Part shown: piece after piece, positions 12,647 through 19,353 of the stretch
Layout: each line of letters starts with the position of its first letter
Numbering within the stretch: position 1 is the first letter of the stretch
Source of the DNA: a virus
Direction: 5' to 3' (one strand)
Virus genome (UHGV): UHGV-0478452
DNA: 19,921 nucleotides
Made by a program: the position numbers and the translations under genes
Notes under the pieces: generated by a model
Database searches by the model: none
Seen by the model: only the letters and a program-made list of their open reading frames with translations
Told to the model about the DNA's origin: nothing

Positions 12647-13147
12647 TTAAACTCTCTCATTAAGTTTCATGATTTTAGTGATTCTCTTCTCAGCTTCATC
12701 ATAGGTCTCTTTTGTAAGAAACTTGATTGCTGCAATGTTCGCATTGTAGAAGAGTCGAAGCTTAGAGTCAATCCTTTTTGTCATGACGTCAAACTTATGC
12801 TGTAGGTTAGCTTCGCCATAAACTAAGCCACCTCGCGTATAGTAAGTCTGGATGATGTAGAAGTCAAACTCTTTTTCACCAAAAGATTCAATATCCTTCT
12901 TAATGTATTCAGAAGATGTTTGATAAGTCATCCAATCACTTTCTTTTGTCACGACTTTACGTCTGGTCTTTCCAGCAACCTTTTTCTTAGTGACGTTATT
13001 AAATTGTTTCTTTCCAATATAATATTGTCCAGTTTTCTTACAGTATACTAAATAGACAAAACCAAAATAGTTAGCGGGGTCAATTTCCCCGCACAGTGAA
13101 ATCCAATGTCCATAAACAGGGCAATTTCCAAATCCTTTAATCTTCAT
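12647..13147 (-). CDS. GIY-YIG nuclease-domain protein
   Basis: 166-aa ORF containing FVYLVYCKKTGQYYIGKK, i.e. a (G/F)(I/V)Y ... 10 aa ... YIG arrangement typical of the GIY-YIG motif, followed by basic residues (KTRRK). Confidence 0.45.
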   Translation of the reverse strand: MKIKGFGNCPVYGHWISLCGEIDPANYFGFVYLVYCKKTGQYYIGKKQFNNVTKKKVAGKTRRKVVTKESDWMTYQTSSEYIKKDIESFGEKEFDFYIIQTYYTRGGLVYGEANLQHKFDVMTKRIDSKLRLFYNANIAAIKFLTKETYDEAEKRITKIMKLNERV

Positions 13148-14177
13148 TCATAACTGGCTCCCAATTGTATTTTTTAAACGTAAAATCATCTTTAGGATTT
13201 CGTTCTTGATAAGCAATCCAGAAGTGCTGCTCCATTAGTTCTAGTGGAGTTCTTGTCACAATCTGACCATCCCATGATTCATAGGTGTATGACTCTTTCT
13301 TAGCATAAAGCTCATAGATTGCGTCTAAGCACTCTTTGTAGGTAGTTTTACCTTCCAGTGCATTCATCACCGCAACTTTACCAGCACCTTTTAAACCGAA
13401 GTAGTTATCTGCATTATCACCTGCTACAGCTTGATAGCAGAGGAATTTAAAACCTACTCCGACTGTCTTCTTAGCTTTCGGTTTAGATTTGATAGGGCAA
13501 TCCCAAATCTCACCAACGTTATTATCTGCAATGAAAATTAATGGAGCTTTCTCATAAGTCATATCAATACAGTAAGTTCCTTCAGCTTGACGAAGGTCTT
13601 TATCAATACTCATCAGAGCAGCTTTTTTACCCATCTTCTCAGCTTTTGCAATAACGATAGAGTCTGCTTCGAAGCCCCCTTTTAAGAGCTTAAACTCTGG
13701 TCGTGACAGAAGATACTCACGACAAGCAACTAGGTGTGTAGGTGTTACAGCTTCTTTTCTGTTACCTTGATATTGGTGTTCAAGACCTTTGATATCCTTG
13801 TGTTTGTGAACACCTTTCTCAGTAAGGTAACCCATCCATTTGCGTTCTTTACCAACGACTTTCAACCACTCCTGAAGAACTTGCTGTGTAGCCATAATTG
13901 CTTCAGCTTCACTCTTAGCCTCCTTCCAAGTCTGTCTTTCCCATTCATCTTCATCAAAGTCAAGTCCTAACTCTTCAGTTAAAACTCTTTGGTCAGACAG
14001 CCATTGTGCTGCCAGTTTTGCACTATCAAAAGCGTCGGATTCTTCAGCAGTGATTTTATTCACATACTTGTACTTTGCTTTTTCAACTACACAAGCACCT
14101 TTGTAAGCAATGCTATCAGAGTCAATAAAGACGTGTGTAACGCTCTCTGGGAGCTTTGTTAAGGTGTATTGTTCCAT
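13137..14177 (-). CDS. putative 5'-3' exonuclease (T7 gp6-like, PIN/FEN-type)
   Basis: Track ORF 13137..14204; I place the start at ATG 14177 (MEQYTLTK), which has a GGAGAG RBS and lies after the terminator. HVFIDSDSIAY near the N-terminus, MSIDKDLRQ, and AVAGDNADNYFGLKGAGKV resemble T7 gene 6 exonuclease segments as recalled. Confidence 0.5.
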   Translation of the reverse strand: MEQYTLTKLPESVTHVFIDSDSIAYKGACVVEKAKYKYVNKITAEESDAFDSAKLAAQWLSDQRVLTEELGLDFDEDEWERQTWKEAKSEAEAIMATQQVLQEWLKVVGKERKWMGYLTEKGVHKHKDIKGLEHQYQGNRKEAVTPTHLVACREYLLSRPEFKLLKGGFEADSIVIAKAEKMGKKAALMSIDKDLRQAEGTYCIDMTYEKAPLIFIADNNVGEIWDCPIKSKPKAKKTVGVGFKFLCYQAVAGDNADNYFGLKGAGKVAVMNALEGKTTYKECLDAIYELYAKKESYTYESWDGQIVTRTPLELMEQHFWIAYQERNPKDDFTFKKYNWEPVMNED

Positions 14178-14192
14178 TGTACTCTCCATACG

Positions 14193-14222
14193 AAAAAGCC
14201 CCATACGTCTGTACAGGGCTTT
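14193..14222 (-). terminator. rho-independent terminator between SSB and exonuclease genes (7-bp stem GGGCUUU/AAAGCCC region with U-run)
   Basis: Plus strand aaaaAGCCCC-(loop)-GGGCTTT at 14193-14222; on the minus strand the hairpin is followed by UUUUU. Confidence 0.55.
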
Positions 14223-14239: not shown

Positions 14240-15100
14240 TTACTCGTCGTCAGTTTCGAAATCATCTTCGTCGTCATCATCTGGGTTTGGTAGGTCGTCG
14301 TCATCGTCATCACCACCTTTACCTTCATCACCAGAATCTTTTGCATCTTCTTCAGTGATTTCACCGTTGTCTTCAACACCTGCAAGGCCAAGCATTGCCA
14401 GTTCATCTTCATCCAGTTCAGTCTCAGTAGCACCACCAGTACCACCAGTGTAAGGAACCAGAGTATCAATGATAAATTGTTCCTGAATTGGCTTGGTCAG
14501 AACGTTACCTTCAAATGTGTAGAAGTGAGTCGCCAGAATCACACTACCAAATGAGCCGTTACCAACTGCAATATCTGGATGAATTACATCGTAAGTCTTA
14601 TCATCATCGTGCTTATCAGATTTTGCTGCCTTGATTTTCTTCATAGGCTGCTTAACTGCAACACGCTTACCGTTGATTTCTTCAACCAGCATTACAGGGA
14701 AACTCTGTTTTGCTGACCACACAGCACCGTCTTTATATGCTGCTGAACGGCTAACCTTCAGGATGTGATAGGTGTCAGCTTCAAACGGAGGCTCACAACC
14801 AAACTTCTCTTCGAAGTCATCTGCATCAACAGCCTCTGTAGTAACTTTATCCCAACCTTCAGGACTCTTTTTAGACTTGGTGAACTCTTTAAAGAGCTTG
14901 TTACCATCTTTTGCCAGAATTGAAACGCTGTAGTTACAATCTTTGCCCGGAAAATGCTTATCCACAGATTTACCCTTTTGAGGGCGTGGAATAGTGTTCA
15001 GGTAATAGAACCAAACATCTTTCAGCAGGTAACGCAGAGGCTCACGTTCTTGACCATTGTACTTCTCTACCGGAGCTTTCATTTTAACAACTTTAGACAT
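14240..15100 (-). CDS. putative single-stranded DNA-binding protein (T7 gp2.5-like) with long acidic C-terminal tail ending DDFETDDE
   Basis: 286-aa ORF, RBS AGAGGTATTAAA before ATG at 15100. Basic N-terminal part, Gly-rich linker (YTGGTGG), then a poly-Asp/Glu tail with a single Phe, which is the gp2.5-type architecture. Confidence 0.55.
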   Translation of the reverse strand: MSKVVKMKAPVEKYNGQEREPLRYLLKDVWFYYLNTIPRPQKGKSVDKHFPGKDCNYSVSILAKDGNKLFKEFTKSKKSPEGWDKVTTEAVDADDFEEKFGCEPPFEADTYHILKVSRSAAYKDGAVWSAKQSFPVMLVEEINGKRVAVKQPMKKIKAAKSDKHDDDKTYDVIHPDIAVGNGSFGSVILATHFYTFEGNVLTKPIQEQFIIDTLVPYTGGTGGATETELDEDELAMLGLAGVEDNGEITEEDAKDSGDEGKGGDDDDDDLPNPDDDDEDDFETDDE

Positions 15101-15151
15101 TTTAATACCTCTTTCTCAAATTAACTTTTAACTCAACTATCAAGGAGTACA

Positions 15152-15180
15152 ATCTTACAGACTTCGTACTCCCTTGTCAA
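15152..15180 (-). promoter_or_regulatory. sigma70-like promoter upstream of the SSB gene: TTGACA - 17 bp - TAAGAT, with a 7-bp inverted repeat straddling the -10
   Basis: Minus strand reads TTGACA(15180-15175)-AGGGAGTACGAAGTCTG-TAAGAT(15157-15152); the inverted repeat GGAGTAC / GTACTCC sits at plus 15144-15150 and 15166-15172. Confidence 0.55.
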
Positions 15181-15185
15181 ACACT

Positions 15186-15323
15186 TTAAGCAGGTTTCTT
15201 AGCTGCTTTACGAGCCGTCTTACCTGTACGAACTCGCTTCTGTACATAGTACTCAGCAGAGTGACCAGTGGTTGCTCTCATGGAATCGCCAAATACTTTC
15301 TCGAATGCTTTAGAATGTTTCAT
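15186..15323 (-). CDS. small basic protein (45 aa, MKHSKAFEKVFGDSMRATTGHSAEYYVQKRVRTGKTARKAAKKPA)
   Basis: Not in the ORF track (below its length cutoff); translated codon by codon from the minus strand. ATG at 15323 forms an ATGA overlap with the stop of the upstream gene and has GGAGAG 5 nt upstream; TAA at 15188-15186. Confidence 0.45.
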   Translation of the reverse strand: MKHSKAFEKVFGDSMRATTGHSAEYYVQKRVRTGKTARKAAKKPA

Positions 15324-15601
15324 GAATCTCTCCGATATATTTCATATTCAAAATGTTTATTAGTCAAGGTAAAGATGTAAACTGTAGATAAACCATCAAT
15401 CGCTAATGCAAACTGCTCAACATTATCTTTTGATAAGTGTTCAAACTTTACTTCATGTCCCTTGTTGATGAGTACTTTACCGAACTGCTCTATCTTAGTC
15501 AAGCACTCTTTTACAAAATTTTTTCTACTTTCTTCTGAATAGAAGGGTTCAAAACCCTCCTTCAGATAACTATCAATCAGTTTCGAACGGACAGTCATCA
15601 T
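15320..15601 (-). CDS. hypothetical protein (93 aa)
   Basis: ORF in the track; its 5' end overlaps the primase-helicase 3' end by about 9 codons. No motif recognised. Confidence 0.45.
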   Translation of the reverse strand: MMTVRSKLIDSYLKEGFEPFYSEESRKNFVKECLTKIEQFGKVLINKGHEVKFEHLSKDNVEQFALAIDGLSTVYIFTLTNKHFEYEIYRRDS

Positions 15602-17564
15602 TATCCTCGTTAATCACAGGTGGAATGGTGGAACTTTCACGTTGTTCTTGTGTGTAAATCTCTCCAGATTCACGGTCAAAATCAACATCTTCATAGTGTG
15701 GCATAGAGTCATCGTAATGGTCTTCAGCCTCACCAATACCAAACTGCTGACGAATATTCTCTGCTGCACCATCAATATCAACACCACATCCAGCAGCCTT
15801 TACAAGACGACCTGTATCTGGATTATACCAAGTGTGACCAGCAATACCAGTTGATTTACCATGACGACGACATTTTGTTAACTTGATTTTTGTCAAGTTC
15901 TTTTTAACAGGGTCTGGGTCAACCTTGTTACGCATAAGCAAAATGTTGTTCATGGAAATCTGGAAGTATGCACCAGAACCCTTGATATCTTCTTCAGAAA
16001 TATCACCACCTTCAGAGTTAGCCTTTTGACCACCTGCACTCTTACGAACGTGACACACGTTTACCTGAGCATACTGATAACGCTTACAGCGACGAAGTAA
16101 CTCAGACAGAACTTCTTCTTCATCTGTATCAGAGCGTGACAGCGCCAATGTAATAGGGTCAAGGATGATAATCTTACAATCAAGACTGTTAACCAGATAG
16201 TCAACAAACTCCAGCAGGTTATCTTGGTCAATTGCCCCTTGGTGGTCTACGATGTGGATACGACGACCTTTTGACAACTCAGCATGTGCAACCTTAATCT
16301 CATCCCAATTACGCTCATCGTAAGGAATCTCTGAAATCTGCTTACTAAGATGGATTGCACAGAGCATTTCCATAAGTTCTTCGTAAGTATCCTCTACAGG
16401 AATTACACCGATGTTGTACTCAGTATCCTTCCATGCTTTGTAAATCATTTCACGAGTATATGCAGATTTACCTACAGATGAAGGTGCAGCAAGGGTTGTA
16501 ATCTCGCCTAAACCATACCCGCCATAAGTCAGCTTATTCAAATCCCCGAAAGAATCTGGGAAAGGAATTAAAGGAATCTGACCACGATTCTTCATAGCAT
16601 CGAAACCATCTGCAAAGTTCTTGATACCAGCAGGGCAGTAACGAGGTGCATTGTAGATTCGTTGTTTAAATCCTTCTAAGACTGTATCTTTGTCTTTGAA
16701 GAACTTAGTCCACCACTCACTAAGGTCTTTAATACCTTCAGGATACTGGAACAGTCTTACTTTTTCAATAGGTAAGATACCAGCAGCTTCCTTAGTTGCT
16801 TTAGCCCCTGCTTCATCATTATCAAAGCATAGGTAAATCTCATCAAAGGAAGTAATATACTGATAGTTCTCTTTGATGGACTTAACATTAGCACCGGATG
16901 GTACAGAAACGTGGCAGTAATTCTTACGTCTAGACTTATCTTTAATTGCTAAAGAAGTCATGTAGATTGCTGTAGCACATTCCATCTCACCTTCCCAGAT
17001 GAAAAGACGGTTACCACCTTCTGGAGCAATCCATGAACCGAACATAGCCAGTTCACCTTTAATATCTCCGACACCACCAGAAAAATCTTTCAACTTCCCA
17101 CGTAAGTGCTCTTTATGATAGTCATCTGGATATTTGTGACGAACACGATAACCTACATGTTGCAACTTACCATCTTCATCCTTTTTGTATGTTGGATAGA
17201 AATGTGCATCAATATCACCGTTATCATCAATATCAACTTTAATACCAAGACGCTCAAGGACTTTTGCAGGAATCTTCCTGTCTTTTAAATCCATTGCTTC
17301 TAGGTTTTCTTTCACATCATCTAAATCCATACCACGAAATGTACGGTTTTTATTCTCTGAACCTGAAGTATGAGTACTCACAATCTGCCCTTTATCAAAA
17401 TCCCACTCTGGAAAACCTTTTCCACAACTGAAACATGTCATTGAATATGAACCGTCATCATGACGATATATAGAACCTGCATCTGAAGATAAACATTGAG
17501 GGCGTGGACATGCACAGTGACCTACAAATGTTCCAGCATCTTTCAGTTTTCTCTGTTTAGCCAT
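15573..17564 (-). CDS. bifunctional DNA primase-helicase (T7 gp4-like)
   Basis: 663-aa ORF, RBS GAGGTG before ATG at 17564. N-terminal Cys4 zinc-binding element (CACPRPQC...CFSCGKG), TOPRIM-like EGEM segment, Walker A-like P-loop (AAPSSVGKSAYT), and an acidic C-terminal tail ending DNDDCPFETD. Confidence 0.9.
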   Translation of the reverse strand: MAKQRKLKDAGTFVGHCACPRPQCLSSDAGSIYRHDDGSYSMTCFSCGKGFPEWDFDKGQIVSTHTSGSENKNRTFRGMDLDDVKENLEAMDLKDRKIPAKVLERLGIKVDIDDNGDIDAHFYPTYKKDEDGKLQHVGYRVRHKYPDDYHKEHLRGKLKDFSGGVGDIKGELAMFGSWIAPEGGNRLFIWEGEMECATAIYMTSLAIKDKSRRKNYCHVSVPSGANVKSIKENYQYITSFDEIYLCFDNDEAGAKATKEAAGILPIEKVRLFQYPEGIKDLSEWWTKFFKDKDTVLEGFKQRIYNAPRYCPAGIKNFADGFDAMKNRGQIPLIPFPDSFGDLNKLTYGGYGLGEITTLAAPSSVGKSAYTREMIYKAWKDTEYNIGVIPVEDTYEELMEMLCAIHLSKQISEIPYDERNWDEIKVAHAELSKGRRIHIVDHQGAIDQDNLLEFVDYLVNSLDCKIIILDPITLALSRSDTDEEEVLSELLRRCKRYQYAQVNVCHVRKSAGGQKANSEGGDISEEDIKGSGAYFQISMNNILLMRNKVDPDPVKKNLTKIKLTKCRRHGKSTGIAGHTWYNPDTGRLVKAAGCGVDIDGAAENIRQQFGIGEAEDHYDDSMPHYEDVDFDRESGEIYTQEQRESSTIPPVINEDNDDCPFETD

Positions 17565-17760: not shown

Positions 17761-18501
17761 TTATAGATTGATAATGGTTTTAAGTTTACTCTCTAACTCT
17801 TCCATCGTTCCGTTATTCTGGATAATATCACGGGAGAAGTTAGTGGAGATACCACGTTCAGAGCTATGGGAAGCCACCTGAGTAGCATCTTTTCTTGTAA
17901 TCTCAATTATCTGGCTATCGTAGCTTTGAAGGAACTCAGCTTCAATATCAAACCTTAAATCACATATCAGTGCAATACCTATGTGACTTTTCTTAACGCA
18001 ATCTCCATAGAATTTTTCAATACGTTCTGCCAAATCTGTAATCCAGAAACGCTCTCCAAGAATTTTACGGATAACCTCACTACCCCAGACTTGCTGTATT
18101 TGTCTTGAGGAAATCATATATTCATTTTTCAAACCAAGCTTTGTAAGCAATGTAGGTTTACCAACTTTCTTTAACTCTTTGATAAGCCTGTCTGTGATTT
18201 CCCCACAAAGTTTTGCATCTTCATGGATGCCCTTACTTTTCATGTTTAGCTGGAAAGCCCATGCCACACGGGAGTTAAGATTGTCAAAATCTAAGCTAAA
18301 CTTTTTAGGTGTTTCTTTCGTATCACCATACAGGTCTTGCCAGTTCAAGTCAAAGATAAATCCAGCAGTTGCTTTTAAGTTATCGGCAAACGCAAACACT
18401 TTAACAGTGTATCCAGCCTCATTCAATAGATTTTTTACAATGCTGCAAGATGTATCCTTTCCAGAACGAGCTTTTCCAGTAAATGCAATAATACTTTTCA
18501 T
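17761..18501 (-). CDS. deoxynucleoside monophosphate kinase (T4 gp1-like)
   Basis: Track ORF 17761..18531; I place the start at ATG 18501 (MKSIIAFTGKARSGKDTS), which has GGAGTG 6 nt upstream. The P-loop G-x-A-R-S-G-K-D-T and the C-terminal end NNGTMEELESKLKTIINL closely parallel T4 gene 1 dNMP kinase as I recall it. Confidence 0.8.
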   Translation of the reverse strand: MKSIIAFTGKARSGKDTSCSIVKNLLNEAGYTVKVFAFADNLKATAGFIFDLNWQDLYGDTKETPKKFSLDFDNLNSRVAWAFQLNMKSKGIHEDAKLCGEITDRLIKELKKVGKPTLLTKLGLKNEYMISSRQIQQVWGSEVIRKILGERFWITDLAERIEKFYGDCVKKSHIGIALICDLRFDIEAEFLQSYDSQIIEITRKDATQVASHSSERGISTNFSRDIIQNNGTMEELESKLKTIINL

Positions 18502-18513
18502 ATCGTTCACTCC

Positions 18514-18543
18514 ATAATAAAAAGCCCCCAATTAAGGAGGCTT
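18514..18543 (-). terminator. rho-independent terminator (AAGCCUCC-UUAAUU-GGGGGCUU then UUUAUUAU)
   Basis: Inverted repeat at plus 18522-18529 / 18536-18543 (one G-U pair on the mRNA strand) followed by a U-rich run, between the stop of ORF 18559..19353 and the dNMP kinase RBS. Confidence 0.6.
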
Positions 18544-18558
18544 AAGGGTATGCCACAA

Positions 18559-19353
18559 TTATTGTAGTTTAGAACCAGTGAGTTCACGCTCAGACATTGC
18601 TTCTAACTGCTGAACAAACTCTTCACCGAAGTTGATTGCAATCTTGGTGCTAAGAACTGCTGCACCAGTTTGGCTAAATACATCCCCGAGTGCTGCTGTA
18701 TGAGCACCTTGTGAAATGCTCTCTACAAAGCTTGGGTCAGACTCTAACATTTTTGACACTTCAAGTAAAGCATGGATACCCATGATACTAAAGATAGCAT
18801 TTAACAGTGAAGTTACCTTAACCTGAATAGGGTCTAAAGAGAGACCATTAGTAATCTCTGACAGCTTATTCATTGTCTCATCAGCATACTGAATTGCCTT
18901 GTCAGATACTTCATCAAAGCCCCAATCCAGTTTTGCATAACGTGGTGACTTATCATTCATACGCTTCTCTAGTGATGCCATTACAGCAGCAACTGGCGTA
19001 CAAATAGCTTTCAGAATGTCTTCATCACTCATGTTATCAAGCTCTTTGATACCCTGCTCAGTAATCTGGATGTATCCACCTGAATACATTTCATCAAAGA
19101 TATATGCTGCAAAAGCATCAACACCAATGAAGATGGTCTTCAGAGCATCAGTCTTATTAGACAGCAGGTATTCAACCTCTTTACGGAAATCTTCGTCATT
19201 CTCTACAGCGTTTTTTACAACACGCAGAGATTCAGGGATAAATTTTCCTGACAGTGAGTTGCTACGCATAATGATAGCAAGAGTCTCAACAGTGTTCAGC
19301 ATGAATGCTTCGTCGATACCTTTTTCTTCCAGAATCTCATTTACAGTTTTCAT
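18559..19353 (-). CDS. hypothetical protein (264 aa, predicted largely helical)
   Basis: ORF in the track; no motif recognised. Confidence 0.55.
   Translation of the reverse strand: MKTVNEILEEKGIDEAFMLNTVETLAIIMRSNSLSGKFIPESLRVVKNAVENDEDFRKEVEYLLSNKTDALKTIFIGVDAFAAYIFDEMYSGGYIQITEQGIKELDNMSDEDILKAICTPVAAVMASLEKRMNDKSPRYAKLDWGFDEVSDKAIQYADETMNKLSEITNGLSLDPIQVKVTSLLNAIFSIMGIHALLEVSKMLESDPSFVESISQGAHTAALGDVFSQTGAAVLSTKIAINFGEEFVQQLEAMSERELTGSKLQ

Follow-up and report, generated by a model that had tools for sequence, protein, structure and literature searches.

A shared aromatic-x-Thr-acid motif in the C-terminal tails of the primase-helicase and a predicted gp2.5-type single-stranded-DNA-binding protein encoded by a Felix-O1-like phage, and its possible docking partner

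Introduction

In bacteriophage T7, the acidic tails at the C-termini of the primase-helicase gp4 and of gp2.5, a single-stranded-DNA-binding protein (SSB), bind basic patches on the DNA polymerase gp5, and the front basic patch consists of K587, K589, R590 and R591 of gp5. The two tails resemble each other, since gp4 ends in DTDF and gp2.5 in DGDF, and the T7 work stresses the terminal Phe. The gp2.5 tail reportedly interacts with the helicase and the polymerase, and regulates binding of single-stranded DNA (ssDNA) and dimerisation. Another well-described acidic, disordered tail is that of bacterial SSB, whose tip in E. coli (...DFDDDIPF-COOH) is a hub for many partners. What the host partners of SSB recognise is the free carboxylate on this last Phe. 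Here we analysed a 19,921-nucleotide stretch of viral DNA, UHGV-0478452 (the window), whose source is a Mooglevirus (Ounavirinae, Felix-O1-like myoviruses) with 98-99% identity to Shigella phages ESh20, Sf18, Sf15 and Sf17. A sequence-only reading of the window had proposed that its primase-helicase and SSB share an acidic tail with the motif FETD and that both tails dock on a DNA polymerase encoded elsewhere. We report that the motif is present in both proteins and is conserved in related phages as an aromatic-x-Thr core. By analogy with T7, we suggest that both tails dock competitively on a common partner, for which the phage DNA polymerase is the best candidate (probability about 0.55).

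Results

Translation of both genes confirmed that FETD is present in both tails. The primase-helicase gene (15573-17564; positions are those of the window, and its long open reading frames (ORFs), like all features given below by window position, are on the minus strand) encodes 663 residues ending in STIPPVINEDNDDCPFETD before the stop codon. Its acidic tail, NEDNDDCPFETD, is encoded at 15576-15611, with the FETD codons at 15576-15587. The SSB gene (14240-15100) encodes 286 residues ending in LPNPDDDDEDDFETDDE, with the tail DDDDEDDFETDDE; the disordered acidic C-terminal region, residues 222-286, is encoded at 14243-14437 and its FETD codons lie at 14249-14260. Both tails had been described as long and acidic with one aromatic residue. 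This description fits the SSB, whose last 65 residues include 32 D/E and a single aromatic residue, Phe, but it does not fit the helicase, which is acidic only over about the last 12-20 residues (6 D/E in the last 12) and has 6 aromatic residues in the last 65. In neither protein is the aromatic residue terminal as in T7 gp4 or in T7 gp2.5 (F232); the helicase Phe is at position -4 (F-E-T-D end), and that of the SSB is at -6 in the window, whereas most orthologues have it at -4.

In the ORFs of phage Sf17, a 90-kb genome that is 98.6% identical to the window over this region, F-x-T-[DE] occurs at a frequency of 1.75e-4 per position, and the helicase and the SSB are the only real genes in which it lies within the last 10 residues. 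A search for a third motif-bearing protein across the complete Sf17 sequence and eleven related 10-22 kb loci gave none. A small protein of Yersinia phage P778 and Pectobacterium phage Wc4 that ends in Y-x-T-D was judged unrelated, as it lacks both an acidic tail and a homologue in the window. When the tails were shuffled, the same F+3 tetramer was obtained in 0.9% of trials and F-x-T in both tails in 0.4%. A DNA repeat or gene conversion between the tails was rejected, because the DNA common to both is only 11 nt (TTCGAAACTGA) and the flanks are unrelated.

The sequence-only reading named absence of FETD from orthologues in related phages as a ground for refutation, and it withstands this check, since the orthologues keep the motif as [F/W]-x-T-[D/E/N]. 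This form falls in the last 10 residues of every one of 16 close relatives of the SSB and of none of 47 distant ones. Among helicases, aromatic-x-T-x is found at the exact C-terminus in 11 of the 17 with at least 56% identity, compared with none of the 67 with 51% identity or less, and a further five of the 17 have aromatic-x-[I/V] near the end. F280 and T282 of the SSB are invariant in 12 orthologues (down to 45% identity), whereas the surrounding tail varies freely. Judged from these sequences, the shared tail motif is not a product of chance.

Tails were then paired within genomes (helicase end, SSB end): Mooglevirus (PFETD, DFETDDE), Felixounavirus (PFETE, DFDTED), Pectobacterium phage Wc4 (GFQTE, GFQTE), Erwinia phage phiEa21-4 (DDDDIPFRTE, DDDDDVPFKTE), Yersinia phage P778 (QFSTT, EFETD), Hafnia phage SarahDanielle (GLVIDGNTGEVLS, DEWETN) and contigs L044 (NFVTV, DFETE), L045 (DFVTT, GFETE), L046 (DFVIDRGKDY, DWETE), L047 (DYVIERGKEPCEQH, DWRTE), L048 (GFETN, DWETE), L049 (DFVTA, DFQTE) and L050 (GFEVDDKPLNRFE, GFVTE). 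An aromatic-x-Thr core is common to both tails; x is matched in some lineages and the helicase copy is degenerate in a few. We do not claim strict residue-by-residue covariation at x. Three contigs with helicases of about 45% identity carry other endings, namely ..EEQW with ..DDEW, ..LGWE with ..DDEW, and ..DEWHRGEES with ..EGWDD. Terminal Trp is the ending shared in more distant relatives, and terminal Asp-Phe (DTDF with DGDF) that of T7. Each lineage therefore has its own tail ending common to its helicase and SSB, in about three independent instances. Such lineage-specific shared endings are the signature expected if both tails serve one partner.

Several further features of the tails were observed. 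In the metagenomic phages L046 and L047, which are the lineages with the degenerate helicase motifs FVID... and YVIE..., a gene for a Pif1-family helicase (L046 9950-11320; L047 9872-11218) is inserted directly after the primase-helicase gene. Many of the helicase homologues with about 45% identity (P0034-P0086) have a different conserved tail element, P-[LI]-N-[SG]-F, which precedes a terminal Trp by a few residues; this element was not seen in the SSBs of the three contigs checked. Many distant SSB homologues (P0102-P0156) have the ending D-(I/V/L/T)-P-F, which is also that of the bacterial SSB tip, and the phiEa21-4 helicase and SSB (L041 7931-9844 and 9947-10810) have tails that read like this tip plus three residues (IPF-RTE and VPF-KTE). 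From the phiEa21-4 tails and the distant endings, one may speculate that the motif arose by extension of a bacterial-SSB-like tip.

The 286-residue protein is not named as an SSB in the databases. Phage records call it 'hypothetical' and in one case 'methyltransferase', its family PHROG 3877 is of 'unknown function', and direct sequence searches gave no match in Pfam and none in the PDB by phmmer. A word-indexed search found only 13 close relatives, an 8-sequence profile matched gp2.5 weakly (E 0.079), and the first AlphaFold model, built from 12 close sequences, was poor (pLDDT 52). An exhaustive profile search found 61 proteins, mostly of 200-245 residues and nearly all with an acidic tail ending in an aromatic residue. 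With these distant homologues added, a confident model and a gp2.5 match were obtained. The model based on a 58-sequence alignment had a pLDDT of 84 overall, exceeding 95 across residues 1-219, and its tail was disordered (pLDDT <50 at residues 220-227 and 237-277). It has an OB-fold core of the gp2.5/Enc34 type, and the top nine Foldseek matches were all SSBs of this type. The 58-sequence family profile matched authentic T7 gp2.5, taken from the T7 record, with 95.7% probability (E 8.8e-9). Furthermore, several intermediate homologues match both PHROG 3877 and PHROG 112, 'Gp2.5-like ssDNA binding protein', which together with Pfam SBB_T7 (PF21265)/DUF2815 served as the gp2.5-type reference families. 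The assignment made from sequence alone is thus borne out, and it is well supported that the protein is a T7 gp2.5-type SSB with a disordered acidic tail carrying an aromatic residue. By its type, it is predicted to bind ssDNA and to be essential for replication and annealing. Our literature search found no paper naming an SSB for Felix O1-like phages, so the assignment is absent from the literature as far as we found.

The protein differs from the solved members of its type. Sequence identity to the Enterobacter phage Enc34 SSB (PDB 5ODJ, 5ODK and 5ODL) and DUF2815 (PDB 4KLK) is only 9-16%; its core is about 219 residues with insertions, compared with about 170-180 in those two, and unlike them it has no Pfam match and has a different tail motif. 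The tail contains a second conserved element, ELDEDELAMLGL (residues 227-238; 14387-14422), in which D231, L233, L236 and G237 are invariant. It is the sole helix predicted in the tail and is amphipathic, perhaps serving as a distinct element for dimerisation or another interaction.

The primase-helicase is gp4-like, as had been proposed. It contains the Pfam domains Toprim_2 and DnaB_C and matches PHROG 239, 'DNA primase/helicase' (E 4e-181), and among solved structures its nearest relative is T7 gp4 (E 2.6e-38 over residues 151-594). Paired Cys residues lie near the N-terminus (CxC...C, then C..C), so that the protein joins a Zn-ribbon/TOPRIM primase to a DnaB-like (SF4) helicase domain and has the architecture of a T7 gp4-type bifunctional enzyme. 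Three homologues (P0030, P0046 and P0075; 931-956 residues) are about 300 residues longer than the others and have normal tails; the extra length probably represents inteins.

The sequence-only reading placed the polymerase outside the window, and we located it in Sf17. An 899-residue family A polymerase starts about 120 nt beyond the right end of the window and is divergently transcribed; T7 gp5 is its closest solved relative. We aligned the polymerases of Sf17 and of the Hafnia, Yersinia, Pectobacterium and Erwinia phages with T7 gp5. The Ounavirinae polymerases have a basic thumb insertion at the position of the thioredoxin-binding domain (TBD) of gp5, about twice as long as that of T7. It is anchored by conserved K-Y-P and AP[YF]TP and contains conserved basic segments, e.g., residues 279-313 and 438-452 of Sf17. 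In six Felixounavirus loci (L008, L009, L013, L016, L020 and L026), the polymerase frame breaks after ...RKKAKNGIYA, at a conserved polymerase motif, leaving a 714-residue piece. This suggests that an intron or homing-endonuclease insertion splits the gene.

Discussion

Of the three core parts that make up a T7-type replisome, the window encodes the gp4-like primase-helicase and the gp2.5-like SSB, and the third, a gp5-like family A polymerase, lies just beyond it. We propose that each tail is a flexible acidic segment whose tip is a short linear motif, aromatic-x-Thr-(Asp/Glu), usually placed at the very C-terminus. The two tails would dock singly and in competition at one site on a common replisome partner, the candidate for which is the phage DNA polymerase. 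By docking, the helicase hexamer could recruit and retain polymerases, and the polymerase could engage and displace the SSB, as in T7. The candidate docking site is the enlarged, K/R-rich thumb insertion aligned with the T7 TBD (about residues 279-313 of the Sf17 polymerase). The parts of this proposal differ in strength. The identities of the genes, the fold of the SSB, the conservation of the motif and its restriction to the clade, and the presence and type of the polymerase are shown by the analysis. It is quite probable that the motif functions in docking and that both proteins have it in common because they serve one partner. The polymerase has about an even chance or slightly better of being this partner, and the thumb insertion is put forward as the site from sequence comparison. 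That the tails bind anything at all is likewise an inference.

As in the T7 replisome, all three protein families occur, and for each of them the closest solved relative is the T7 protein. The helicase and the SSB both carry acidic tails with a critical-looking aromatic residue, the tails are similar to each other within a phage, and the polymerase has an insertion at the TBD position. There are also clear differences. The aromatic residue is at -4 or -6 and is followed by x-Thr-Asp/Glu, and the invariant Thr is absent from the T7 tails. The front patch K587/K589/R590/R591 is not conserved, and the thumb insertion is about twice as long. The SSB gene lies between the helicase and exonuclease genes, and the polymerase gene is upstream and divergent; the gene map bears out the claim that a polymerase gene is lacking between those for the helicase and the exonuclease. 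Finally, the phage is a 90-kb myovirus.

Several points weigh against docking on the polymerase through a shared motif. In the alignment, ISKGG of the five Ounavirinae polymerases stands opposite the T7 front patch, KWKRR. Neither tail ends in its aromatic residue, as those of T7 and E. coli SSB do. The residue at x is equal in both tails in only about 4/13 lineages (e.g., FVTV versus FETE in L044). The helicase motif is degenerate in several phages (FVID..., YVIE..., FEVD...), and Hafnia phage SarahDanielle has only LVIDGNTGEVLS. Both tails are inherited together in related phages, so the counts are not independent and represent about three independent motif types. Because the front patch is absent, the docking site cannot be the T7 front basic patch, and with a non-terminal Phe, an invariant Thr and no front patch, the chemistry of recognition must be other than in T7. 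Any such docking in these phages therefore cannot be identical to that of T7.

The main rival explanation is that the tails share a partner other than the polymerase. This could be the ssDNA groove of the SSB itself, on which the tails would act as DNA mimics in auto-inhibition or helicase-SSB coupling, or another phage hub such as the products of two small conserved ORFs between the helicase and SSB genes. These ORFs encode a 93-residue protein (15320-15601; PHROG 4982, E 4e-47) and a very basic 45-residue protein (15186-15323). The contact of the T7 gp2.5 tail with the helicase and its regulatory role in ssDNA binding and dimerisation are consistent with this explanation, as is the absence of the front basic patch from the polymerase. 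Marintcheva et al. (2008) reportedly found that the tail and ssDNA compete for the same surface of gp2.5. On the other hand, the polymerase keeps a basic TBD-like insertion, and a groove or hub partner is compatible with polymerase docking, with which it may well co-exist, rather than exclusive of it. The small proteins in particular cannot be the universal partner, because phiEa21-4 lacks them and keeps both motifs. We regard a non-polymerase partner as possible but somewhat unlikely.

Recruitment of host proteins would give another reason for the resemblance. Here the tails would mimic or modify the bacterial SSB tip (DDDIPF) and hijack or avoid host SSB-interacting proteins. The D[IVLT]PF endings of distant SSB homologues are the bacterial tip itself, and the phiEa21-4 tails are this tip plus three residues. 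The tails of the window resemble bacterial SSB in being acidic, and that of the SSB in being disordered, but ETD comes after CPF in the helicase and ETDDE after DF in the SSB, and the fold is of the gp2.5 type. Because the Phe is followed by three or more residues, recognition of a terminal carboxylate cannot apply; the blocked carboxylate speaks against hijacking, although it would fit insulation from host partners. Moreover, there is no obvious reason for a helicase to mimic host SSB. We consider host recruitment quite unlikely.

A related idea extends polymerase docking and includes such insulation. Aromatic-x-Thr-acid may be a distinct, specifically read motif, formed by adding three residues to an ancestral D-(I/V)-P-F tip, that re-targeted both tails to a new pocket, e.g., in the doubled thumb insertion, and insulated the replisome from host SSB partners. 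The lineages would then have tail 'dialects' (terminal DF, terminal EW, FxTE) common to helicase and SSB. This idea is speculative and we think it unlikely; if it is true, the dialects would be a compatibility code restricting exchange of replisome parts between phages.

The 93-residue ORF begins inside the helicase gene and shares its last 29 nt in a different frame, so that the helicase codons for NDDCPFETD and the stop coincide, in the +1 frame, with MMTVRSKLID. If this overlap fixed the helicase tail codons, the resemblance to the SSB tail would be incidental. Equivalent overlaps of 26-68 nt are present in Sf17, P778, Wc4, L044, L045, L049 and L050. However, the motif is kept without a same-strand overlapping ORF in phiEa21-4 (PFRTE) and L048 (GFETN), it survives DNA divergence down to 56-70% protein identity, and the SSB tail, which has no overlapping gene, still conserves it in all 16 close relatives. 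Overlap as the main cause was rejected as largely refuted by phiEa21-4 and L048 and is very improbable, but it is possibly an extra constraint on the helicase tail codons. A chance match between two low-complexity tails of restricted acidic alphabet, which the shuffling frequency of the identical tetramer might allow, is barely credible and is refuted by conservation, as F and T are invariant across the SSB orthologues and the motif is specific to the clade in both proteins and to these two genes in Sf17.

With the SSB assignment, a function can be predicted for a protein that about 300 Felix-O1-like phage genomes list as 'hypothetical'; several of these phages are used in typing or biocontrol of Salmonella, E. 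coli and Shigella. It also indicates that a T7-type replisome operates in Felix-O1-like myoviruses. The concept of shared acidic tails, known from T7, could be widened from one model phage to a comparative rule, in which each phage has one ending for its helicase and SSB and the endings differ among lineages. The Phe, the Thr and the basic residues of the thumb insertion would be handles on the handover among helicase, SSB and polymerase in a system that has neither the front patch nor a terminal Phe.

Other features of the locus

The 93- and 45-residue ORFs are syntenic in most relatives and are missing in phiEa21-4 and Hafnia phage SarahDanielle; their products are possible accessory factors of the replisome. 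A 5'-3' exonuclease gene (13137-14204; PHROG 107 'exonuclease', E 6e-64), annotated in relatives as exodeoxyribonuclease, lies downstream of the SSB gene at a position like that of T7 gene 6. The exonuclease tail (...NWEPVMNED) does not contain the shared motif. The exonuclease gene is followed by genes for a GIY-YIG homing endonuclease, a MazG-like protein and the ribonucleotide reductase proteins NrdA, NrdB and NrdD. A SegE-type GIY-YIG homing endonuclease domain is clear in the ORF at 12647-13147 (Pfam E 1e-27), yet RefSeq and PHROG 447 name it 'NAD synthetase', which is probably a propagated mis-annotation. On the other side of the primase-helicase gene, a small ORF separates it from a dNMP kinase gene (17761-18531). 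Beyond this, amid the replication and nucleotide-metabolism module, a 264-residue ORF (18559-19353) is labelled 'minor tail protein' in the RefSeq record of Sf17, a label that looks doubtful given the context.

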